IMG/VR virus record: IMGVR_UViG_3300032164_000006 | Span: 8,057 to 72,056 of that record | Strand: one strand, 5' to 3' | Source of the DNA: a virus | Length of the DNA: 64,000 bases | Part shown: piece after piece, positions 2,720 through 48,761 of the stretch | Layout: each line of letters starts with the position of its first letter | Position numbering within the stretch: position 1 is the stretch's first letter | Made by a program: the position numbers and the translations under genes | The notes under the pieces: model-generated | Databases searched by the model: none | Told to the model about the DNA's origin: nothing | The model's input: the letters and a program-made list of their open reading frames with translations, nothing else

Positions 2720-3121
2720 TTGATAAAGGTAAACAGAAAAGATGGAAAGACACTATCATTTGATTTATGTAGGGATGAGGAATACTCCGACATCCAAGCA
2801 AAATTGGATGACGTATCTTTCTCAAAAGATGTCACTGGGATAAACTGTCTATTCAATGCCTTCTGGCATGCGATAACAGTTCCGGTGAATTTTCGTAACA
2901 TCAAATATGATGTTGAGAAAGTAAAGTTCTCGAAGGGTGGCGTCGAGAAGATAGTTGGAGAGAAGATAATTTGCCATGCGGACGACGTCCGCTTAACTGT
3001 TCTCGTCTACTACAATACGTGTCCAAAGATTGCGAGAATAGAGCTTAAGAAGATTGGTAAACAAAGATACGTTCCAGTGAGGGGTAAGACCAATGGCACT
3101 AACAGAGAAGAAGACATCTAA
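2720..3121 (+). CDS. Hypothetical protein
   Basis: Start moved from 2693 to the in-frame TTG at 2720, which follows AAGGAG (2705-2710). Confidence 0.65.
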   Translation: MIKVNRKDGKTLSFDLCRDEEYSDIQAKLDDVSFSKDVTGINCLFNAFWHAITVPVNFRNIKYDVEKVKFSKGGVEKIVGEKIICHADDVRLTVLVYYNTCPKIARIELKKIGKQRYVPVRGKTNGTNREEDI

Positions 3122-3395
3122 CTTTGCGAGCTATAGGGGAGCACCCTCTAGTGACACAAACTGGGATAGGGTTTCTTGGGATTTTGATGCACGACACGTT
3201 AAGGTTGTGGTGCTTCCGACGTCAACGGTAAACCCCGAGATGTCTATAGACGGAGCGGACGTTCACGCTAGTTTACAGCGTCCTTCTGCGAGTCAGAACC
3301 CGATGGTTTATGAATTCAACGACATAGGCGTTAGTCGGCTTTCCTTTAGAAAGGTTGGAGCCGTCATTGAAGTCTACGCTTATGGAACGCACTAA
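3093..3395 (+). CDS. Small beta-rich putative virion protein (paralogue family A)
   Basis: Shares an S(I/F/W)(D/N)G motif and a C-terminal strand pattern with 3413-3694 and 5167-5496. Confidence 0.6.
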   Translation: MALTEKKTSNFASYRGAPSSDTNWDRVSWDFDARHVKVVVLPTSTVNPEMSIDGADVHASLQRPSASQNPMVYEFNDIGVSRLSFRKVGAVIEVYAYGTH

Positions 3396-35300: not shown

Positions 35301-38300
35301 ATGACACATTCTAATCAAATATTGGACAGGAAAAACAGAGCACACGTTCGGTCAACTGTTGGAGAAAATCTGGAGAATATTCTAGATTTGGTTGATGACA
35401 GATTGTCGTATCCAATGGAAGTTTCCATCGGCGGCTATACCATCACAATTGGGAGTGGACTCCTGCAGTCCGCGGAATCAAACAGCCTAGATGGTAAATC
35501 CGACTCATATAGGGTTGGCGTTCCACCTCTAGCTGGACTTGAAACGAAGCCAGTTGTGTCCAGTCTTGTGCTGAACACAGGAGCATACGACGGTGACTTT
35601 GAAGTACCAACCAATCCAACTCTAACTCCAAACCAATACATTAGAATGGGTATTGAGCTGCGACCAGATGGAAAATACTACGCTGTTTTTGGAACGCCGA
35701 GTGCGTTGCTGACAGGGTGTGGATATCCTCCATTTGCCATTGGTGCCTCAATCCAAATTATGGTCATCGACCTGCAAGATAGTGGTTCTGGTGGGAACTG
35801 GAGCTACAAGGTTCCAGCAAAAAAAGACGTCATAGTGTTCAACAACCCTAGTGCTGGAGGCGGTGGAACACCCAACGCAAAGCTGATGGGTGGAGGCGTG
35901 TGGGCTGCATCAAATAATCTTGGTGACACACAATTAGAGTGGAATGGTGTTGCGTATGTTTCTCTTCCGGGATTACAGAAAGAGCGAAACACAATACAGC
36001 CGGACATCATATCTTTGGCAGAAGACGAAGCTGCCTACGTTATCTTGAACAAGTTGGCTGGTCCAAACGAGGATCTCGTCGTTCAGAAAGACCTGTTCGT
36101 CAACATATTCCCATACAATCCAAATCTATTTTTAATAGCAAGGGGATTTGCTGGGGGAGTGCTGGTTGGTAACTCTTGCTTCAGCTTAATTCATGGAGAA
36201 TCAAAAGAGCTGGACACTGGCATGTCTATCCAAAACAGGCAGCTATTGGGGTCTGACGTAGATGAGACAACGTCTGTACCAGAATACTCTTTGCGTGGTG
36301 CTCCAGAAAGAACACTGGACGACACACAACCCGTCCTAGAAGCATTGTCTAGCGTGGATGCAGAGATAGATAAGTTTTTTGGACAGCTGAGAATAATCCC
36401 ACACGAAAGCGACACAAACAAAATAAGAATAACAGGGGTTGATTTCACCATGAAGGATGGCTCTATATTGAGCCAAGAGATTGCAAGTCTTCTTCTGAAA
36501 TTCGACGGAGCAGTAGTAAACCTGACAACTGGTGGAGTGTTCGCCTCGAATGGGACAACCCCAATTGGAATAAACTTTACTCCAGCCACAATCCCTCTTT
36601 CGTCTTATAACTGGTATTCCATAGGTCTTGTCGCAAACACCATAACAGCAAACGGAGCAATGACAGCTCAGTTGATTGTGCTGTCTGGTGGTCCAAACAC
36701 ATCGTCTTCGGCCACAACAATCCCTAGCTTTGCTGGCTCTAAAAAGGTTGGTCTGGTTCAGGTTCAAAACTCTGGCGGGAGCATTGTACGCACAGCCATA
36801 CGACAGCTAGGTGCTGGAACTGGAAGCGGAGGCGGTATATCCAACGCCAAGTTAATCAATGGTGGGAAATTCTACTGGACAGGAGAAATAGAATCTGTTT
36901 CCAGTAACTCTGTATCTCCAAACAGCGTCAACATCAACAATATGTTCTCGGATTGGAATGCTTGGCAGACCTTTGTTGCTGTCGGCTCTGGCTTGACAAA
37001 GTTCTCATCTACCGCTTTTTCTAGGTCTAACTCTGGGGTAACAGGTGTTCTTCGTGGCTATCTGTATGCTGTAAACCAAAGCACAGGTCTTCCAATTGCT
37101 ACGCTCCTCGCTACGTCTATAAACACAGTACCAATTGAGACTCTGGAAACACAATCTTCCGTTAAGCAGTACACCCCCGTGACGTTCAATTTTTCTGGCG
37201 AAACTCTTGTTCCAGGAACCAGATATTGTGTTCTAGTCAAGGTTGTTTCTATCAGCGGTGGATGGATTGCACCCTACATAAACAACACGAACCCACTTCC
37301 AAACGAAAAGGCTGGCATACAATTTTCTGGGTTGAGTGAGACAGTTGGAATGGACATCAATATGTCTGTTGGTCAGCTAGGTGTTGGAACCCTCAGCTGG
37401 GATTCCGCTGCATACGTTTCAATGCCCGGACTAGACTTTGCAAGAAACACAATCCCAGTTGGATCTTCATCCCTAGGGTTGGACGAGGCTCTGTACGTCA
37501 AGGTATCCACACTCGACGGAGTCGCTGCAAACCTAACTGTAGAGCGAGGGAACATAACAGACATTTCGCCCTACGACTCAAGCATATTCATCTTTGCTGT
37601 TAAGACTGCCGAAGGTGTTGTTGTTGGCGACACGTTGCTTGCTGCTGGACAGTCGAGGAAGCTAGACGACAACAGAGTGTTTACGTTCAACAGTTCTTCT
37701 CCTGCAACTCTGACAACCCTAACGTCTACGAAATACGTTGGTGGATATTATTTTCCACTTGGTGGGAGAATTAAGAGTGGGGTTGTAATCTACGGGAACG
37801 TGGTTTCTGATGGAAACCTAACTATCGAAACCAACGTCACAATCTTTGGAAGTGTCACTACAAACGGAAACAACTTAGAGTTTGATTCGACCTATGCTTC
37901 GGCAAACGAAACAATCAAAATCTACGGAGATTTACTTTCCGGATGGACTTACTTCACGTCCGCAACAAACAGCCGACAACACACGCTAACAGTTTACGGA
38001 AGTGTCACAGCTGGATCATTCTATCTGGACACTCTAAACTCCACATCCGATATGCTCAGCATCGAAGTGAAAAGAAGTTTTATAACTTCGGAATTCAGTG
38101 CCTACACAAAAACAAACAACTCTGTAACTGTTGCGGCAATCACAGTCCGAGGCGACCTAATTTGCTCGCAAGGTTTGACAATCAAGCACCTAGAAACTTC
38201 AACAGCACAAGGATACAGAACAACCATCGGCGGGAACCTAATAGTTCAGGGTTCTCTGGTCTATGGCTTCTACGACTCGGCTACAGGAAACTCTAGCAGT

Positions 38301-41300
38301 TCGTCTCTAGGATACCTAGACGTTAGGGGTGTCACAAAAATAAGTGGAAACGCATCGTTCAACGCTAGGTCTGAACACGTCTTCTATGGTGAGACATACA
38401 TCGGTGGAAACCTATTTGTCTATAGTGCTGTAAACAACGTCACCGAGACAAAAATAAAGTTCCGTGGAAATGTTTCTGTAAACGGAGAGGTCACCCTAGC
38501 TGCTCCAACTGGAACCTCAGTTGTTGGTCAATACACTATAGAGGCGTATTCTGAATTTAGAGCTAGAGCTTTGAAGAAGGTATATTCCAACACCTACGCT
38601 TCGGTACGAGGGTACGGAAAAACAGATTACAGGATACCCAAAATCTACGCCGACGGAGTTCTGGCAGATAAGCAAGTTTACTTTCTAATGTCTGATTCTG
38701 CTGGCCAAATGTCGTTGGAAACATATAAGAACACCAACGTAGATGTGAAGCTGGCGAACGTTGGATTTACAGTTCTCAAGACGCTGACAGACGGACTAGC
38801 GTTAATGAGAAAATACAACTGGAATAACGACCAAGCCTATGTTGTGCAGTATGGTAGAGACGACTCGATGTACGACATAGTCGTAGATGCTTCTGGGAAA
38901 GGAGACTACACCTCCCTTCGTCTTGCGTTGTTGGCGGCTGGAGAAAACGACACAATATTCATTCGCAATGGTGTCTATAACGAAACAACTGATTCCCTGT
39001 ACCTGAAGTCAGGACAATCAATCATAGGTGAATCTAGAGACGGAGTTATCCTTACCACTAGCACGACAAGTTGGTTTTTCAGTGCATATAACAGAATTGG
39101 TGGACTCTACTCGACATATCCAGCAACAAGCAACCTAGGCTTCGACTCTGCTACTGGCATCGGTACTGTATCCATAACTAACGGATCAAGACTTGTAACA
39201 TACACTGGAACAACACACCCATCCGACGGAAAAATAGCCTACATCCTAGGTGACTGGTACACAATCAGCAACACCGACACAGTGAACAAGACGTTCAACG
39301 TGGATAGGGATATTTTCAAGAGAACACAGACGGGTCTACCTTGGAGATTTGCGACAACACAAGGAGGGGTAGACTACTCGGTCACACCAAACCAATTCCT
39401 GAGAATAAAGAACCTAACCTACAAAGCAACAACAGCGGCTTCATTCTTGTATGCGAATGCGTGTGCAAACATTGAAGTAGAAAACGTAGATGTTATTTCT
39501 ACAGCATGGAACAGCTCGTCAAACGCAATAATCTACGGACAAAACATGACGAACGTTAGTGCTAGAAATATCCGCTTCTACAACAAGAACACAACTGCCG
39601 GAGCCGACGAACCGAACGTGCTCTATGTCTATGCTGCGTGGGATTGCTCGTTTACGGAATGGGAAGTCTACGGTGGAAAATACATGAGAATGGATGGTTC
39701 CGCTGGAGCCGCGATGAACTACCACTGTAAGGTCCACTTCAGTAGATTCGAAAGCGACGCTCTAATGTGGCTGTCTCTAGGCTTCTGTCAGGAATGTGAT
39801 TTTTCGTTTGGCGTTATAAATTGCAATCAGTTCTGTCAGAGCGAATTCAACTTCCACAAGTGTCGGCTAGATTTCTTCGAAACAAGAATGTTTGGGGGTA
39901 GCTCATATATCCGAGGACAAGACAACATAGTCAACTTTGGGAATATGTATCTCGACGGTGCTTCTTTCTACGTTAATAAGGCTCAAGCATCTGGGTATCT
40001 TTCCAAAAACATTCTTGTATCTGGAAACGTCATTGGAACTGGAACACTCTATCTAGACGACAGCGTGTACCTAGGAGACAGCGTCTACGTCCAAACTTTG
40101 GGTGGAACAGCTCCAGCACGAACACCAACACCAAGAACAAGTGCTGTTGTTTTGGATGCTGCTGGAGGAGGCGACGCAACAACGCTCGCAGCTGCGATAA
40201 CCAAGGCTGGAAACTACGGATCAATCTTTGTTAGAAACGGAACGTACACCATGTCTAGTGGTGTCAGCTTATCTATTGGCCAAACAATCTTAGGTGAGTC
40301 CAAGAACGGAGTTATCCTAGAGTTTACTGGTGGATATATCTCAATGCCATATCCAGTTTCATACAACATAGGAACTAGCTTCACAAACGGAGATCCAAGA
40401 ACACCGAGCACAACCTACGCTTGCGGATTTCTGACGCTAACCACAAGTTCCAGAACCATTGCATACTCTGGAGACATCGCTCCAACTGTAGGCAATATTC
40501 TACGAGTACAGGGCGAATGGTTCGAGGTCATGACTGTAGATAGTGGTGCGAAAACATTCACAGTAGACAAAGACGTTCGTCACGCTCCGTTCTCCAATGT
40601 TTGGTGTAAATTCTACCAAAAACAATATGGAGTAAACATATCCCAAAATCCATCTATCAGGTCTTCTATTAAAAACCTGACAGTGAAAATGACGTCAGGA
40701 AACATGGCGATAAACGTGGGTTCTTGCTGCGACGTAGAGGACGTTGACATTATAGACGTTGCAGCTAGTGGATACGGTGGAATGTTGCAAGGTGGGCAAG
40801 GGATTTGCGACACGAACGTGCGTAGGGTAAAAATCATAAACGCAAACATCAACTCTGGTGCAACAACAACATATCTGCGAGCAATATATTTGAGTGGAGC
40901 ACAAGATTGTACCTTCGAGAACATAGAGTGTCACCACACCAACAATGACATGATAGGTGGAGCTAGTTTCAACAATCCAGTGATAAACTGTAAATTCCAC
41001 TTTCTGCGTAAAGTTGGATCAGGTCCAGCGTTCCAACCACTCGGCTACATGACAGAGTGTGACCTGACAATAGACTTCATGGAACACACCAACCTCCAAG
41101 ACGTCAGCGCCTCTTGCTGCCTATATAACTGTCGGGTTAAGTTTGGCCAATCCAGATTCACTGGAAACGTCTATATGTATTCCCTAGGCTCTACATTCGA
41201 CCTAGGTCATATGTGGAACGTCGGCTACGCTTATGTCATTAGTGGTTCACCAACAAAGACCCCACTCAACAAAGTAAACTCTGGACGGCTATATGGCTCC

Positions 41301-43949
41301 ACAGCTTTAGAAGGTCTACTCAGCGTCGATGCATCTGTTATCCTAACCGACAACATCCAAGTAAACCAACTTTCTGGAGCACCATACTCGTCCCCAACAA
41401 AAAAGATGTGGACTATTGTTGCTGCAGACGGAACTGGCGACTACACGAGCATCAGCTCTGCTTGTTCTAACATGCCAGAGGGAACTACATTTTTCATAAG
41501 AAACGGAGCCTACACCGAAGGTGTAATTTCTGCAAAAGCAGGACAGAAATTCATAGGGGAATCAAAGGCTGGAGTCCGAATAACGGCTTCTAGTGGTGTG
41601 CTGTTCCAGCCAACTGGATACTATGCTGGTGGATGGCGTTCGTCTCTCAACTCGACAACATACGAAGAATTTTCATCGACAGAAAACCTCGGTCTAGCTT
41701 CGACAACCCACAACAGTACGACAGTCTCGTACAGCGGAACAGGTTCGAACCCATCTGCGAACCAGTATGTAAGGATGTGCGGAGAGTGGTACAAGTTAAT
41801 CAGCGTAGACACGGGTCTAAAAACATTCGTAATAGACAGAGCGTTTACAAAAGGAACCTACACCCAAATTCCAGTGCTTATGATGTCATTAAATACCGGA
41901 TTCTACGAACTCCACACTTATCAAAGTGGTGGAATGGAATTCAAAAACATGACCATACTTTCTGGAACGCAAACCAACTTCCAAGGCTTCAACATCACAT
42001 CGCAGGTTGGTCTTGTTATAGAAAACATAGACGTCATCGGTGAGAACGCCTCGGCTGGTTTCACTCCATTCTACCTGTACTCTTGCGTAGGGATGAGAAT
42101 GAGAGATTGCGGACAGTACGCTATGGGAACAACAACACTCAACTCAAAGTCTCAGATAACATCTGGATGGGAAAACGTAATAGAAAATCACGTTATCTTT
42201 GGTGGATACCAAACAGAGATCTACGGCTCTGCACAGTCTCCAGCATATAGGTGCAAGTATCACTTCAGAAACATCACTTGCACCGATGCAATGTTCCAAT
42301 TCTTTAGGGCAATGTATGAGTGCGAGATTGAAGTTGAGCGTGGACAAGCCGAAAGAGTTACATCTCAGACAGGAGACGCTCCATCTAGGTGTGTATTCCG
42401 CTTTGGAAAGATACGCACAACCCAAGGAAGCATAATCAAGAGTATAGGCTGTCAGTTCCATATTGGAGATTGGATTGATAGTGCTGGATCTACGTTATCG
42501 CTCGGAAAAGGTTCTAACGGAGTCAGCTTTACTCCATACAACAAGTTGATGTCTGGAAACTTTGGCGGAGCGTTGTCAGTTGACGGAAGTGTTGTAATAA
42601 CAGATGGATTCCAATACACCGGAACTCTAACCGGAACTCCAGCCTACAAACCTATTCTTAGTGCTGCTCCAAAACAATATGACTATGTTGTAGATCCTGC
42701 TGGAGGGGGAAGCCACACAACAATCCAAGCTGCTGTCGCCGCTGCTATAGACGGGAAAACCATATACGTTAGGAACGGGAACTACGACATGCTAGGTGTT
42801 TCCGCATCGGCAGCTAATGGCTTGTCTATTATCGGTGAAACAATGGACGGTGTGAGAATCTCATCTAGTTCGGATATGTTCGGTGTTTCTGGGGGAGGCC
42901 TCATGATGCGAGCTAGAACACAGCTGATAGCAAACCAGACAACCTTTGATACCACAACCAATATTGGAACTGTGACTGTAACGAACGGGAGTACAGCCGT
43001 TGTTTACACTGGAGATCTTACTGGAATTAGCGGCTCAATCACAATAGGGGATGCTATTGCTCTAGGCTCGTCTGAGTTGTATTCTGTTGCTGGAATAAAC
43101 ACAGGAACAAAAACAATCACACTCAATACGGCATACATTGGAGCCTCTGGTGCTGGACTACCATGTTTCATAACATTCGGTACTCCTACAAACTTAACGA
43201 GATCATGTTTCACTCTGAAAAATGTAACTCTCATTTTGACTGCAGGAAACCAATGTATCCAAGCAAATAATGCCTACAAATTGCATCTCGAAAACATCAC
43301 ATGTTTCCATGCAAACACAGGCGGATCTGGTCTTGTTACGATGCAAAGTGGATTCAGAAACAAATTAATCAACGTCAGGACAATTTCAACATCTGCTGCT
43401 GGATATGCTGCTTTCAATTGCACCGGAGCGTGGGGACTAGAATTTGTGAACGTTGAATGTGAAAGATCAAAATACAACTATTGGGGTGGTGGAACAACAA
43501 TTCCTAGTCTGTATTGTGACCTCCACTTCAAGAGGATTACAGAATCACCTGCTCTATTTTTCCTAGGATGGGGTGGTCAAGCATTCTGTTCACTTGTGAT
43601 AGACCATATTGAGGGGTGTCGTGGTGGGTTCATGCAAGATGGCGGTGGAACAGCTGAAGACCTATGGCATTTTTATGTGGAAATAAAACGTATGTCGAAT
43701 TGTGCTGGACAGATATCTCTGTTCGGTAGGAATGTAACATTCGTTGGTGGGCATCTACATCATGCTGGTTATTTCAGGCTTAAATCTAGGCAGGGTTCGA
43801 CAAACAACGTGATGATGAGTGGGATGTTTACATCAATCCCAGCCAGCAATTTGGAGGTGGATAGCTCCACAATTATTTGTTCGGCTGTTAACTATCCGAC
43901 AGGTGCTCTGTCTGGTAGTCCAAAACGCAACGATGGTTTCGCGTTCTAA
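35301..43949 (+). CDS. Giant tail fibre/tailspike (2882 aa) with four tandem pectin-lyase-like beta-helix modules
   Basis: RBS AAGGAG. Four copies of the VVDxxGxGDYTxIxxA...IF(I/V)RNGxY...IIGESxxGV motif known from pectinesterase-like beta-helices. Confidence 0.85.
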   Translation: MTHSNQILDRKNRAHVRSTVGENLENILDLVDDRLSYPMEVSIGGYTITIGSGLLQSAESNSLDGKSDSYRVGVPPLAGLETKPVVSSLVLNTGAYDGDFEVPTNPTLTPNQYIRMGIELRPDGKYYAVFGTPSALLTGCGYPPFAIGASIQIMVIDLQDSGSGGNWSYKVPAKKDVIVFNNPSAGGGGTPNAKLMGGGVWAASNNLGDTQLEWNGVAYVSLPGLQKERNTIQPDIISLAEDEAAYVILNKLAGPNEDLVVQKDLFVNIFPYNPNLFLIARGFAGGVLVGNSCFSLIHGESKELDTGMSIQNRQLLGSDVDETTSVPEYSLRGAPERTLDDTQPVLEALSSVDAEIDKFFGQLRIIPHESDTNKIRITGVDFTMKDGSILSQEIASLLLKFDGAVVNLTTGGVFASNGTTPIGINFTPATIPLSSYNWYSIGLVANTITANGAMTAQLIVLSGGPNTSSSATTIPSFAGSKKVGLVQVQNSGGSIVRTAIRQLGAGTGSGGGISNAKLINGGKFYWTGEIESVSSNSVSPNSVNINNMFSDWNAWQTFVAVGSGLTKFSSTAFSRSNSGVTGVLRGYLYAVNQSTGLPIATLLATSINTVPIETLETQSSVKQYTPVTFNFSGETLVPGTRYCVLVKVVSISGGWIAPYINNTNPLPNEKAGIQFSGLSETVGMDINMSVGQLGVGTLSWDSAAYVSMPGLDFARNTIPVGSSSLGLDEALYVKVSTLDGVAANLTVERGNITDISPYDSSIFIFAVKTAEGVVVGDTLLAAGQSRKLDDNRVFTFNSSSPATLTTLTSTKYVGGYYFPLGGRIKSGVVIYGNVVSDGNLTIETNVTIFGSVTTNGNNLEFDSTYASANETIKIYGDLLSGWTYFTSATNSRQHTLTVYGSVTAGSFYLDTLNSTSDMLSIEVKRSFITSEFSAYTKTNNSVTVAAITVRGDLICSQGLTIKHLETSTAQGYRTTIGGNLIVQGSLVYGFYDSATGNSSSSSLGYLDVRGVTKISGNASFNARSEHVFYGETYIGGNLFVYSAVNNVTETKIKFRGNVSVNGEVTLAAPTGTSVVGQYTIEAYSEFRARALKKVYSNTYASVRGYGKTDYRIPKIYADGVLADKQVYFLMSDSAGQMSLETYKNTNVDVKLANVGFTVLKTLTDGLALMRKYNWNNDQAYVVQYGRDDSMYDIVVDASGKGDYTSLRLALLAAGENDTIFIRNGVYNETTDSLYLKSGQSIIGESRDGVILTTSTTSWFFSAYNRIGGLYSTYPATSNLGFDSATGIGTVSITNGSRLVTYTGTTHPSDGKIAYILGDWYTISNTDTVNKTFNVDRDIFKRTQTGLPWRFATTQGGVDYSVTPNQFLRIKNLTYKATTAASFLYANACANIEVENVDVISTAWNSSSNAIIYGQNMTNVSARNIRFYNKNTTAGADEPNVLYVYAAWDCSFTEWEVYGGKYMRMDGSAGAAMNYHCKVHFSRFESDALMWLSLGFCQECDFSFGVINCNQFCQSEFNFHKCRLDFFETRMFGGSSYIRGQDNIVNFGNMYLDGASFYVNKAQASGYLSKNILVSGNVIGTGTLYLDDSVYLGDSVYVQTLGGTAPARTPTPRTSAVVLDAAGGGDATTLAAAITKAGNYGSIFVRNGTYTMSSGVSLSIGQTILGESKNGVILEFTGGYISMPYPVSYNIGTSFTNGDPRTPSTTYACGFLTLTTSSRTIAYSGDIAPTVGNILRVQGEWFEVMTVDSGAKTFTVDKDVRHAPFSNVWCKFYQKQYGVNISQNPSIRSSIKNLTVKMTSGNMAINVGSCCDVEDVDIIDVAASGYGGMLQGGQGICDTNVRRVKIINANINSGATTTYLRAIYLSGAQDCTFENIECHHTNNDMIGGASFNNPVINCKFHFLRKVGSGPAFQPLGYMTECDLTIDFMEHTNLQDVSASCCLYNCRVKFGQSRFTGNVYMYSLGSTFDLGHMWNVGYAYVISGSPTKTPLNKVNSGRLYGSTALEGLLSVDASVILTDNIQVNQLSGAPYSSPTKKMWTIVAADGTGDYTSISSACSNMPEGTTFFIRNGAYTEGVISAKAGQKFIGESKAGVRITASSGVLFQPTGYYAGGWRSSLNSTTYEEFSSTENLGLASTTHNSTTVSYSGTGSNPSANQYVRMCGEWYKLISVDTGLKTFVIDRAFTKGTYTQIPVLMMSLNTGFYELHTYQSGGMEFKNMTILSGTQTNFQGFNITSQVGLVIENIDVIGENASAGFTPFYLYSCVGMRMRDCGQYAMGTTTLNSKSQITSGWENVIENHVIFGGYQTEIYGSAQSPAYRCKYHFRNITCTDAMFQFFRAMYECEIEVERGQAERVTSQTGDAPSRCVFRFGKIRTTQGSIIKSIGCQFHIGDWIDSAGSTLSLGKGSNGVSFTPYNKLMSGNFGGALSVDGSVVITDGFQYTGTLTGTPAYKPILSAAPKQYDYVVDPAGGGSHTTIQAAVAAAIDGKTIYVRNGNYDMLGVSASAANGLSIIGETMDGVRISSSSDMFGVSGGGLMMRARTQLIANQTTFDTTTNIGTVTVTNGSTAVVYTGDLTGISGSITIGDAIALGSSELYSVAGINTGTKTITLNTAYIGASGAGLPCFITFGTPTNLTRSCFTLKNVTLILTAGNQCIQANNAYKLHLENITCFHANTGGSGLVTMQSGFRNKLINVRTISTSAAGYAAFNCTGAWGLEFVNVECERSKYNYWGGGTTIPSLYCDLHFKRITESPALFFLGWGGQAFCSLVIDHIEGCRGGFMQDGGGTAEDLWHFYVEIKRMSNCAGQISLFGRNVTFVGGHLHHAGYFRLKSRQGSTNNVMMSGMFTSIPASNLEVDSSTIICSAVNYPTGALSGSPKRNDGFAF

Positions 43950-44363
43950 CTGTCTTCAGTTTGTTCTTCACTCTACTTTCGGAGAAACTGAGGTTTGCCG
44001 ACAGTTAGAGGAAAGACCCTAACTGTCTTCAGTTTGTTCTTCACTCTACTTTCGGAGAAACTGAGGTTTGCGGACAGTGGTTGGAAAGACCCTAACTGAC
44101 TAGAACTACAGAATGAAGGACCTTTTGCGGACAGTTAAGAAAAAGACCCTAACTGTCTTCAGTTTGTTCTTCACTCCACTTTAGAGGAAACTGAGGTTTG
44201 CCGACAGTTGAGTGAAAGACCTTAACTGACTAGAACTACAGAATGAAGGACCTTTTGCGGACAGTTAGAGGAAAGACCCTAAGTGTCTTCAGTTTGTTCT
44301 TCACTCTACTTTGAGTGAAATTGGCGTTTGCCGACAGTTGAGAAAAAGACCCTAACTGTCTTC
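43946..44363. repeat. Non-coding array: six copies of a 35-nt palindromic repeat alternating with 38-nt (A) and 22-nt (B) inserts, order A-A-B-A-B-A
   Basis: Repeat consensus GTTTGCCGACAGTTAGAGGAAAGACCCTAACTGTC starts at 43993, 44066, 44123, 44196, 44253 and 44326. Periods are 73 and 57 bp. Confidence 0.95.
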
Positions 44364-44512
44364 TAAAAATGCTTTACCATTCTAACTTGGTAATGGCTTC
44401 CAAACTCACCAAAAAGCACATCCTATTCAACATCTACATTCTTCCTCTAGATTTTTTAAAACAATTTGGTTAAGATATACTCACACCCAATCAGAACTTT
44501 GCGAGGACGCAG

Positions 44513-45427
44513 ATGTTGGATCTTATCAAGGCTAGAATTAGCAGACTTGAAGAGGTATGTCCGACTATAGAAGTTGGAAACGCCTCGTATCCAACAAAGG
44601 GTGGTGACGACGACTGCCTATGGCTTGGTCTACTTGCATCGGTTGGCTATCAACCAGCAATGGACGGTGTGTTTGAATGCCAGAAGAGAGTTGGGGAGCA
44701 AGAAGGTTTATTCCTTGGAAATCCAAAGCTGGCAGCAAACGAAAAACAAGATCAATCAATCTTCTCTAGCGACATGGCTCTAGGCGTGTTGTGTTGGCTT
44801 GTGTCGTCGGAATACTCTGGTCGGAGTGTTCTTGCGGCTGAATTGTGGCTGAAATGGATAAATAAGAACAGACGGTGTTTGATACCAAATCCAAAAATTT
44901 TTGGAGGCGGCTGTCTGCTCCACGGTGGGTACAGATACGCACCAAGCAAAGACAAACGCTCTAACATCACACCTACAATGTGGTCTTTGATGGGTAGAGT
45001 TTGGGATCACAGAGGGTTAGAGCCACACAAGATGATGGAATTTGCCGAAGGGACTTTCGCTATAGTAGAGGATGAAGTTTCTGTTCTAGAAGCAGAATTT
45101 TGTGCCCTAGGCTATCAGCTACACCTAAAGGCTGTTCAAGCATATATTAAGCTCCAGATTCAACAGTCGACAGAGTGCAGAAAGAAAGTGACAAAAATGT
45201 GTCACGCACGTTTACCAGCAAACCTATTCTACAAAGTCCTTTACCAAGAAGGTGCATCGAAAGAAGACATGGAAGTTTTCTTGACAATGTTGCCGAACCC
45301 AATGACCTTTCGCCCACAGAACTATTGGTTGTGGGAGAGAGAAGATTATACGGAAGCGGTAAGACAAGGAAATATGTGTGGATGGGACATGGTGTTCCTA
45401 GGGAAGTTAATTCTCCAATTCACATAA
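44513..45427 (+). CDS. Hypothetical helical protein (possible alpha/alpha-toroid enzyme), moron-like
   Basis: RBS GAGGA. Motifs DDCLWLGLLASVG, FSSDMALGVL and GYQLHL; preceded by its own AT-rich upstream region. Confidence 0.7.
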   Translation: MLDLIKARISRLEEVCPTIEVGNASYPTKGGDDDCLWLGLLASVGYQPAMDGVFECQKRVGEQEGLFLGNPKLAANEKQDQSIFSSDMALGVLCWLVSSEYSGRSVLAAELWLKWINKNRRCLIPNPKIFGGGCLLHGGYRYAPSKDKRSNITPTMWSLMGRVWDHRGLEPHKMMEFAEGTFAIVEDEVSVLEAEFCALGYQLHLKAVQAYIKLQIQQSTECRKKVTKMCHARLPANLFYKVLYQEGASKEDMEVFLTMLPNPMTFRPQNYWLWEREDYTEAVRQGNMCGWDMVFLGKLILQFT

Positions 45428-47300: not shown

Positions 47301-48761
47301 ATGTTTATTGAAATCAGAGAACAGTTATTTCTACGTTCAACCAATACAGAAATCACAAATGAGATTAAGTCGCTTCTGGACAAGCCAAATCCAGACTACC
47401 TAAAGCTCAAGCGTATGGGTTATCCAACAGAAAAAGTACCACCAAGAATAAGAATGTACGAGATTGACGAAGGTGTCGTTATTGTGCCTAGGGGTGCGTG
47501 GCGAACAGTCAACGAGGTATGCAAGAAACATGGTGTGCAGGTCAGTTACGAGGATAACAGAACAGTAGTTGACGAGATGGAGATTGAGATAAGCGAAGAG
47601 TTGACGCCTTTCTGGTATCAAGAAGAAGCCATAAATAAAATGATTAAGTTCCAGCAAGGCATGGTCGTAGCACCGTGTGGAGCGGGAAAATCCGTTATAG
47701 GATGTGCGTTCATTGCAAGGCTACGCAAGCCAACTATCATAGTTGTCCACACGCTAGAACTATTCAAACAGTGGGAAGACATGGTGCGTGAGCACCTTAA
47801 TTTTCCTGGAAAAATAGGAAAGATTGGTGGCGGCACGAAAACCCTAGGCAACATAACCATAGCAATGATCCAAACGCTAGTGAAGTCATCCCCAAAAGAA
47901 TGGAGCGAAATACAATCCAAGTTTGAAATTTTCATAGGAGACGAATCTCACCACTTCGGTGCCGAGTCTTATATCAAGTGTATGCGGAACATCAGGGCGA
48001 AATATGCCATAGGATTGACAGCCACACCAAAACGAAAAGACAAGAAAGATTTCGTAATCCACAATTATCTAGGCAATGTAATCTACGAGATAACGGACAG
48101 TGACCTTGAAATGATGGGACGTTCGCTGACGTGCAAGTGCAAGATAGTTGAGACAAAAAGAAATTATAACTACACAAAAATGAATGAGATGCTTCCAGTA
48201 TTAGGGACAGTGATAGCAAAAGACAAAACAAGAAATGAAATTATAGTTGAAAAAATAAAAGAGGATATAGATGACGGTAGGACTGTACTTGTTCTTATCG
48301 AGCGTGTTGCCCACGGAAAAATACTATATTCTCTATTAAAACAAGAACAAATAAAAGTTGAATTGATTTCAGGTGCTGTTGACGCTAATACAAGAAGCAA
48401 GATTAAAAGCAAAATGAAAACTGGACAATTAGAGGTGTTAGTAGCGAACAAGGCAATTGCCGCAGAAGGCTTAGATATACCCATTATAGATTCAGTTCAC
48501 ATATGTTTTTGGACAAGCAACGTATCGCTAGTGAAGCAAATGATAGGTAGAGGGAGAAGACCTTACGAGGGTAAGGAATTCTGTAGAGTTTGGTTCTATA
48601 AAGACAATGTTTGTAGAACAGAGTTAGATGGTAATTTTCGTGAGGTGCTTCGTGAAGTGCCAACGTTCAAGTATTCGTTTAGTAGATTAACTTCGTGGTT
48701 GGAATCTCAGTCATTTACAGTGGTAAATGACAGAGACCACAACATGAAGGAGCTTTTTTAG
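47301..48761 (+). CDS. Superfamily 2 DExH helicase (UvsW/XPB-like)
   Basis: APCGAGKS, DESHH, GLTATP, EGLDIP and QMIGRGRR motifs. Confidence 0.92.
   Translation: MFIEIREQLFLRSTNTEITNEIKSLLDKPNPDYLKLKRMGYPTEKVPPRIRMYEIDEGVVIVPRGAWRTVNEVCKKHGVQVSYEDNRTVVDEMEIEISEELTPFWYQEEAINKMIKFQQGMVVAPCGAGKSVIGCAFIARLRKPTIIVVHTLELFKQWEDMVREHLNFPGKIGKIGGGTKTLGNITIAMIQTLVKSSPKEWSEIQSKFEIFIGDESHHFGAESYIKCMRNIRAKYAIGLTATPKRKDKKDFVIHNYLGNVIYEITDSDLEMMGRSLTCKCKIVETKRNYNYTKMNEMLPVLGTVIAKDKTRNEIIVEKIKEDIDDGRTVLVLIERVAHGKILYSLLKQEQIKVELISGAVDANTRSKIKSKMKTGQLEVLVANKAIAAEGLDIPIIDSVHICFWTSNVSLVKQMIGRGRRPYEGKEFCRVWFYKDNVCRTELDGNFREVLREVPTFKYSFSRLTSWLESQSFTVVNDRDHNMKELF

Follow-up and report, generated by a model that had tools for sequence, protein, structure and literature searches.

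The question raised by this locus is what kind of element lies between positions 43946 and 44371 of a 64,000-nucleotide stretch of viral DNA, where a 35-nt repeat recurs with two types of insert behind a very long open reading frame (ORF). The stretch, called the window below, comprises bases 8057-72056 of a linear IMG/VR record of 72,056 bp (G000; CheckV completeness 54%). A first-pass annotation, made from the letters alone, proposed an uncharacterised small-RNA array with CRISPR-like geometry or, as a fallback, an iterated protein-binding or recombination locus. The answer we favour, with about as much confidence as doubt, is that the array is one copy of a lineage-specific, non-autonomous composite mosaic repeat, built from a 35-nt imperfect palindrome and two linkers and spread by microhomology-mediated recombination. 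By analogy, and with similarly balanced confidence, the element would be a phage counterpart of the bacterial interspersed mosaic elements (BIMEs), BOX elements or minisatellite-containing miniature inverted-repeat transposable elements (MITEs), and no RNA-guide locus.

The array and its further copies

We located the 35-nt pattern at 43993, 44066, 44123, 44196, 44253 and 44326 with 0, 0, 1, 0, 2 and 0 mismatches, respectively. None of 100 dinucleotide-preserving shuffles of the window held any match to the pattern, confirming the six copies described in the first-pass annotation. All parts of the array lie on the plus strand. It begins with a truncated unit of 9 nt (43946-43954), which contains only the right arm of the repeat, followed by the first copy of insert A (43955-43992), repeat unit R1 (43993-44027), a second and identical copy of insert A (44028-44065), R2 (44066-44100), the first copy of insert B (44101-44122), R3 (44123-44157), the third copy of insert A (44158-44195), R4 (44196-44230), the second copy of insert B (44231-44252), R5 (44253-44287), the fourth and most diverged copy of insert A (44288-44325) and the last unit, R6 (44326-44360). 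R2 and R4 belong to a subtype that precedes insert B. The array ends with a conserved 11-nt tail (44361-44371). The order A-A-B-A-B-A thus stands as first described, with four 38-nt copies of insert A (two identical, two diverged) and two identical 22-nt copies of insert B. Tandem Repeats Finder (TRF) reported periods of 73 nt (2.1 copies, 93% matches) and 130 nt (2.8 copies, 87% matches, score 567) over 43946-44358.

The array is non-coding. Stop codons occur in all reading frames, and the sole ORF touching the array is a 67-aa overlap at its start. Neither Rfam at gathering thresholds nor ARAGORN found anything in the window. The first partial unit contains the TAA stop codon (43947-43949) of a 2882-aa ORF on the plus strand (35301-43949), a putative tail fibre or spike. 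The first-pass annotation called this ORF a giant fibre gene, an identity left unsupported by the searches against Pfam and PHROG, which gave no family match. The label derives solely from where the ORF lies, behind the tail genes.

Contrary to the first-pass annotation, the array is no orphan. A second array was found on the minus strand of the same record outside the window (G000 1412-1850), with the same A-A-B-A-B-A order and the same tail. Its segment 1412-1837 is 92% identical to the window array over 426 nt, in inverted orientation and 50 kb upstream. A pattern scan of Joint Genome Institute (JGI) metagenome contigs returned 13 loci, of which 10 were single chance matches and three (L003, L004 and L005; two contigs) were true arrays. 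One is short, with a single period (L003 9510-9652), one is long (L004 7680-8127), and the third is split by a contig end (L004 8836-8963 and L005 1-157). Over the five loci, insert A occurs 15 times and insert B 8 times, and the element ranges from about 0.13 to 0.46 kb in length. The long copies share the order A-A-B-A-B-A, and were therefore duplicated as whole blocks.

Outside the five loci, a search with a profile of the unit revealed no solo or degenerate copy. A blastn search with the array found nothing in 50,697 phage records, and the reference genomes of 185,579 species yielded 12 single repeat matches, none with the extended motif, and no array. Pattern scans of IMG/VR gave 0 matches and then 2 chance single matches.

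We assigned the metagenome loci to a phage lineage on the basis of two observations. The first 22 bases of contig L003 are identical to the last 22 nt of G000 (window end, 64000). L003, L004 and L005 share 86-90% identity with a relative, record G004, which also overlaps the right third of G000 with 92% identity. Therefore, these contigs are regarded as the remainder of the same genome lineage; outside the arrays, they have no nucleotide or protein similarity to G000. The phage genome is about 100 kb long, with at least five array loci. This length exceeds the G000 record, yet is below the approximately 130 kb implied by the CheckV completeness.

Family scans with Pfam and PHROG were made on 80 ORFs of the non-structural parts and on the large ORFs of this incomplete genome; most ORFs of the structural region were left out, and 11 of the 36 families of one set were not displayed. 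G000 encodes a tail sheath, a tape-measure protein and a large terminase, together with replication proteins (family-B DNA polymerase, DnaB, primase and RecA). No cultured phage has a large terminase more than 31% identical to this one, and the phage is therefore placed in an uncultured myovirus lineage. Its recombination genes include RecA, a 5'-3' exonuclease and metallophosphatase and SbcC-like genes.

Filled and empty sites in related phages

We compared the array loci with four related IMG/VR records (G001 to G004). The array is absent from these records over their whole length and missing at all four comparable loci, the flanks of which are 80-94% identical; the window locus lies outside this comparison. 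At the minus-strand locus (G000 1174-1841), 668-707 bp between the flanks are replaced by 192 bp in G001 and 74 bp in G002, with flank identities of 94% and 80-85%, respectively, and the adjoining terminator hairpin is kept in all three phages. The short-array locus (L003 9507-9646) corresponds to 12 bp in G004, the long-array locus (L004 7652-8136) to 227 unrelated bp and the split L004/L005 locus to no more than 145 bp. Within the latter, G004 has two 17-bp direct repeats (about 3120-3165; L047), which lie upstream of a conserved TTGACA-type promoter, have palindromic ends and are possibly operator sites.

The element is absent at every comparable locus in relatives with flanks this similar, and is therefore dispensable and gained or lost as a block. 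The more distant G002 also lacks the first array, a pattern that speaks for a gain by the array-bearing lineage rather than a loss by the other phages. The term ordinary minisatellite, which the first-pass annotation had offered as the alternative, is too weak for an element with at least five dispersed loci, block gain and loss between near-identical phages and conserved blocks around hypervariable patches.

Filled and empty sites showed no target-site duplication and no terminal inverted repeats beyond the palindrome of the unit itself. At the junctions, 12-227 bp were replaced, and the left ends were ragged. The short array is exactly one 130-nt period between two copies of the same 7-nt word, and a similar word is present in the empty site. 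The left junction of the minus-strand array falls where unit and empty site resemble each other over about 9 nt. We infer that the element was copied by illegitimate or template-switch recombination, without a transposase.

In the mechanism we propose, a non-autonomous element would be copied to new intergenic sites by the recombination and replication machinery of the phage, which has RecA-like, SbcCD-like and FEN-like genes. Copying would take place by template switching or illegitimate recombination at short microhomologies, and unit variants would then be exchanged between copies by gene conversion. Selection would keep the blocks flanking certain 6-nt patches, described below, as bipartite recognition sites or hairpin-forming sequence. 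The main effects would be dispersed homology, which inversion, deletion and module exchange could use as a substrate, and a padding rich in hairpins between transcription units.

Several points weigh against this reading. A right-hand tail of 11-16 nt is common to three arrays, namely the window array, G000 1412-1850 and L004 8836-8963. Within the first unit, their left ends are at positions 8, 14 and 27. With near-common right ends and left ends within 20 nt, these arrays resemble a discrete element whose ends are set by an enzyme more than products of random illegitimate recombination, and an enzyme-defined copying mechanism is possible. There is no direct evidence of movement, recombination products or inversion: public Logan contigs from 4 runs over 42800-45400 are pieces of 53-765 nt without joints, and the pieces from the array (53-178 nt) do not span it. 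The window locus is not matched to an array-less relative, and an ancestral, functional master copy could reside there. G004 ends 820 bp downstream of the window array, the C-terminal and N-terminal parts of the 2882-aa ORF have no IMG/VR relative, and the 304-aa protein encoded next to the array has no close IMG/VR relative, its alignment giving only loci at 28-38% identity, all without arrays. Every copy belongs to a single phage lineage from related sediment samples, and the independent events are therefore few. Finally, the strong contrast of the conserved blocks with the variable patches speaks for a reader that is sequence-specific, either protein or RNA, and none was identified.

The summed depth of the Logan contigs was several-fold higher over the array than over its flanks; this value is not a copy number, and nothing was concluded from it. 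No RNA run was present among the 20 listed sequencing runs that contain this sequence.

We compared the element with described dispersed repeats. Repetitive extragenic palindromic (REP) sequences and BIMEs are described as intergenic imperfect palindromes of about 35 nt with defined linkers, forming mosaic arrays whose copy content varies among close relatives (PMC2817692, PMC3333891). The present element resembles REP/BIME sequences, as described there, in its intergenic palindromic units of about 35 nt, linker types, mosaic arrays, dispersed copies and differing presence between close relatives. In contrast to the alternating palindromes of the BIMEs in these accounts, all units here are direct. 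The same accounts give BIMEs more than 100 copies per genome and a Y1 (RAYT) transposase, whereas we found five loci in a phage genome and no Y1 match. A six-frame search of the 72-kb contig with PF01797 (Y1_Tnp) at E <= 1 gave no match, and none was listed for the ORFs of L003-L005; a host-encoded enzyme is possible.

The nearest element in form is the 'BrickBuilt' minisatellite-containing MITE of Porphyromonas gingivalis, which is reported to combine a spacer-less 23-nt repeat with small terminal inverted repeats and to have 19 copies in a bacterial genome (PMC4596501). Both are discrete, always intergenic and multi-copy, with a tandem-repeat body and distinct end pieces. The phage element differs from that account in its two alternating linkers, ragged left ends and lack of terminal inverted repeats and target duplication.

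The BOX elements of pneumococci are a similar case.

Promoter early stem-loop (PeSL) cassettes of T4-type phages are, in two reports, single units with a sigma-70 promoter and a terminator stem-loop, present at about 50 per genome and proposed as substrates of homologous recombination (PMC2839356, PMC4122927). Like PeSLs as portrayed there, the arrays are repeated intergenic sequences of a myovirus located at indel or replacement differences between close phages (four of four comparable loci here). Unlike these cassettes, they form tandem arrays (130-460 bp) that lack a consensus promoter or terminator, and no shuffled gene cassette was seen between arrays. A literature search for dispersed tandem arrays in phage genomes found PeSLs, Cluster O palindromes and the other elements compared here, and no element of this kind was described in the literature covered.

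Dispersed repeats are much studied in bacteria, but few descriptions come from phage genomes. In this phage, a composite array of 0.4 kb occupies at least five intergenic sites, and at four of them phages with about 90% identity differ in whether it is present. Such dated and comparable filled and empty sites allow the spread of non-coding DNA inside a phage genome, and its seeding of rearrangements, to be studied.

Conserved blocks, folding and transcriptional context

We compared the three long arrays with each other. They differ by 37-45% in ten 6-nt patches and by 4.2-4.8% elsewhere, an approximately ten-fold contrast. Only seven patch variants occur; they are mostly purine-rich, recur in R units as well as in A units and are shuffled between arrays. 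Since 6-nt patches would not escape homogenisation if it acted alone, the flanking blocks look selectively constrained.

A fixed-length variable patch between conserved blocks is what a bipartite binding site with an unconstrained 6-bp spacer would produce. The arrays may thus be sets of sites for a specific DNA-binding protein, acting as operator, enhancer, partition, packaging or nucleoid-organising sequence, which we consider rather unlikely. Such a function would not depend on the direction of transcription and fits the mixed genomic contexts given below. Two arrays lie 70-150 nt upstream of the presumed promoter region of the next gene, and one replaces the 17-bp direct-repeat pair upstream of the TTGACA-type promoter of the array-less relative. 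On the other hand, the patch variants are a non-random, purine-rich set of seven, and no lineage-specific DNA-binding gene was found. The lineage-specific ORFs that we saw were only a 76-aa ORF adjoining the minus-strand array, which has no family, and one for a DUF6876 protein. Since the arrays are absent from close relatives, they are no origin, packaging (pac) site or centromere that the phage needs. Origin iterons, a pac site and a centromere were rejected for the same reason: the arrays are absent at four of four comparable loci, a comparison that does not include the window locus, and neither ParB nor Rep was among the families listed for the scanned ORFs. The evidence is compatible with the fallback proposal, an iterated protein-binding or recombination locus.

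More far-reaching is the idea of a new self-propagating array in a virulent-type phage, whose conserved blocks would be read by a protein or RNA and whose 6-nt patches, taken from a small common repertoire, would serve as address or specificity codes. It might be, for example, a multi-site system that coordinates or insulates modules, or a non-autonomous mobile element with a new copying mechanism (defined 3' end, variable 5' truncation). We consider this idea doubtful. Were a specific reader of the conserved blocks to exist, the element would amount to a new regulatory or mobile system.

The five arrays are all intergenic. Two lie between convergent genes, one (the window array) between co-directional genes in sense orientation, one between co-directional genes in antisense orientation and one between divergent genes; both orientations relative to the flanking genes thus occur. 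At three of the five loci, no more than 3 nt separate the start of the array from the stop codon of a same-orientation gene, namely the 2882-aa ORF, a nuclease-like gene and L003 8832-9506. Scans for consensus sequences revealed no sigma-70 promoter or intrinsic terminator inside either G000 array. The same scan found none in the unique spacer (44372-44512, plus strand) between the window array and the next gene.

Two terminators adjoin arrays. An intrinsic terminator with a 12-bp stem and a T run (G000 1850-1879; L030) overlaps the end of the nuclease-like gene, directly abuts the minus-strand array and is kept in G001 and G002. A bidirectional intrinsic terminator (L003 9655-9695) lies between convergent genes, with the short array between the stop codon and the terminator.

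The start of three arrays at or close to a stop codon, and the position of the short array ahead of its terminator, would suit a cis-acting structured RNA. The array would then be a 3' untranslated tail, the hairpins of which block 3' exonucleases, attenuate read-through or yield small RNAs. This explanation is possible, though we judge it unlikely. We folded the six units of the window array and obtained -13.8, -6.3, -8.0, -8.3, -9.9 and -8.0 kcal/mol. Five units and two or three copies of insert A folded better than shuffles. R1 is the sole window unit with the full 9-bp palindrome and was the most stable (z = -4.6). The palindrome is broken in R2 (z = -0.4), which was no better than shuffles (62 of 200), and the region of insert B is unstructured. 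For the whole array, z was -5.1 on the plus strand and -4.6 on the minus strand; these values are uninformative because the repeats pair with each other.

Covariation was tested in 12 R-A-R units under two models, a local hairpin and a stem closing the insert. In both, 0-1 pairs were changed on both sides, and 443-492 of 500 shuffles scored equal or better. Two common substitutions, each present in 7 of the 12 units, break the outer stem without compensation. The stem of insert A itself, noted in the first-pass annotation, is paired in all 12 units. Each of the three substitutions in this stem produces a G-U pair on the sense strand, a point for a structured RNA; these events are too few to weigh. 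The two alternative folds proposed for the inverted repeat fared less well: the palindrome is complete in only one of the six units, and the stems do not covary. Other observations also speak against a structured RNA. One array is antisense between co-directional genes and another lies between divergent promoters, no Rfam family matched, no terminator-like site occurs inside the arrays, and near-identical relatives manage without the array.

Guide-RNA readings, partner genes and neighbouring genes

The initial case for a CRISPR-like array was its dimensions. The 35-nt unit and the 38-nt insert resemble CRISPR geometry, and the repeat starts with GTTT. A CRISPR-like or tandem interspaced guide RNA (TIGR)-like array, or an RNA anti-CRISPR (Racr) in which a CRISPR RNA (crRNA) mimic titrates a host Cas protein, has nevertheless been largely refuted, and we regard it as very improbable. 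The spacers of a CRISPR array are unique, whereas the inserts here are two recurring sequences. Rfam at E <= 10, including the CRISPR-DR, Csr and Rsm families, gave no match, so the 35-nt repeat is not supported as a known CRISPR repeat. A crRNA-repeat mimic would be expected to have a counterpart array, and none occurs in the reference genomes of the 185,579 species, with the phage host not identified; nor does the repeat occur in multiple copies in other metagenome contigs. Mixed genomic contexts and the lack of stem covariation also stand against the crRNA mimic and guide RNA proposed in the first-pass annotation.

The TIGR systems were considered separately. TIGR units are described as 36 nt long, with two alternating 8-12-nt repeats, 9-nt spacers and an adjoining gene for a Nop-domain (Tas) protein (PMC12045711). 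The array shares with CRISPR and TIGR loci, within the extent of that description, a regular alternation of conserved and other segments, a unit size near 36 nt and, here, occurrence in a phage. Its dimensions differ from those given for TIGR: units are 73 and 57 nt long, patches are 6 nt and occur as seven variants only, and no Nop match exists in the contig. A six-frame search of the 72-kb contig with PF01798 (Nop) at E <= 1 was empty, and none was listed for the ORFs of L003-L005, in agreement with the first-pass annotation, which saw no Nop gene. It also saw no cas, integrase or reverse-transcriptase gene, and this held among the families listed for the scanned ORFs, including the 80 of the non-structural parts: no Cas, Nop, Y1-transposase, integrase, reverse-transcriptase, ParB, Rep or CsrA family was present. 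Unlike CRISPR and TIGR loci, the array has no unique spacers, no associated protein that we could see, no match to a known repeat and no uniform context, and it is dispensable in relatives. The CRISPR, TIGR and Racr readings were rejected on these grounds, namely recurring inserts, no Rfam match, no arrays in reference genomes and no Nop gene. The locus is also a warning that CRISPR-like geometry alone (35-nt repeat, 38-nt insert) is no evidence of a guide-RNA system.

A sponge RNA for an RNA-binding regulator, in the style of CsrB or RsmZ with GGA motifs in hairpin loops, seems to us just as improbable. GGA occurs in the repeat, both inserts and most patch variants, and it outnumbers TCC on the same strand by 11 to 1 and 17 to 2. 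However, GGA occurs at 26-39 per kb compared with 21.8 per kb on the plus strand of the genome, a small enrichment, and 10 of the 27 repeat units have patch variants without GGA. No Csr or Rsm family of Rfam matched, no promoter was found, and the arrays are in mixed orientation. The candidate was rejected because GGA is hardly enriched over the genome background.

Scanning the rest of the genome for copies and for a partner protein, as suggested at the outset, yielded the former, on G000 and on L003-L005, and not the latter, among the families listed. One candidate partner was the ORF at L005 262-930, which matched PHROG 800, 'terminase small subunit' (E = 8.5e-10). It was rejected as a small-terminase partner: it is 88% identical in an array-less relative, and Pfam returned nothing. 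Conservation begins only at an internal Met and takes in a P-loop, and the product is more probably a P-loop protein of about 177 aa.

The first gene past the window array (44513-45427, plus strand) encodes the 304-aa protein. Its function is unassigned, and its 41 homologues are unnamed or 'hypothetical'. An identical copy is encoded on a contig of 94,024 bp, and a relative with 88% identity on a contig of 28,487 bp.

Other genes of the phage were observed in the course of the analysis. The ORFs of L003 include a TET-associated glycosyltransferase domain, a radical-SAM (S-adenosylmethionine) domain and a cold-shock domain, a set that hints, from domain content, at DNA hypermodification in the phage. 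L004 2222-2581 encodes a stand-alone response-regulator receiver domain protein of 120 aa. A glycoside hydrolase family 5 (GH5) cellulase-family enzyme and a phage lysozyme are found among the ORFs of L004 and L005 (region of L004 4752-5897). In the window, a helicase gene is located at 47301-48761. Its counterpart in G004 carries an insertion of about 800 bp (L034 2484-3300) near the position corresponding to about 47677, where the window has none, and the protein match is limited to residues 119-486. This insertion may be an intron, an intein or a homing-endonuclease insertion.

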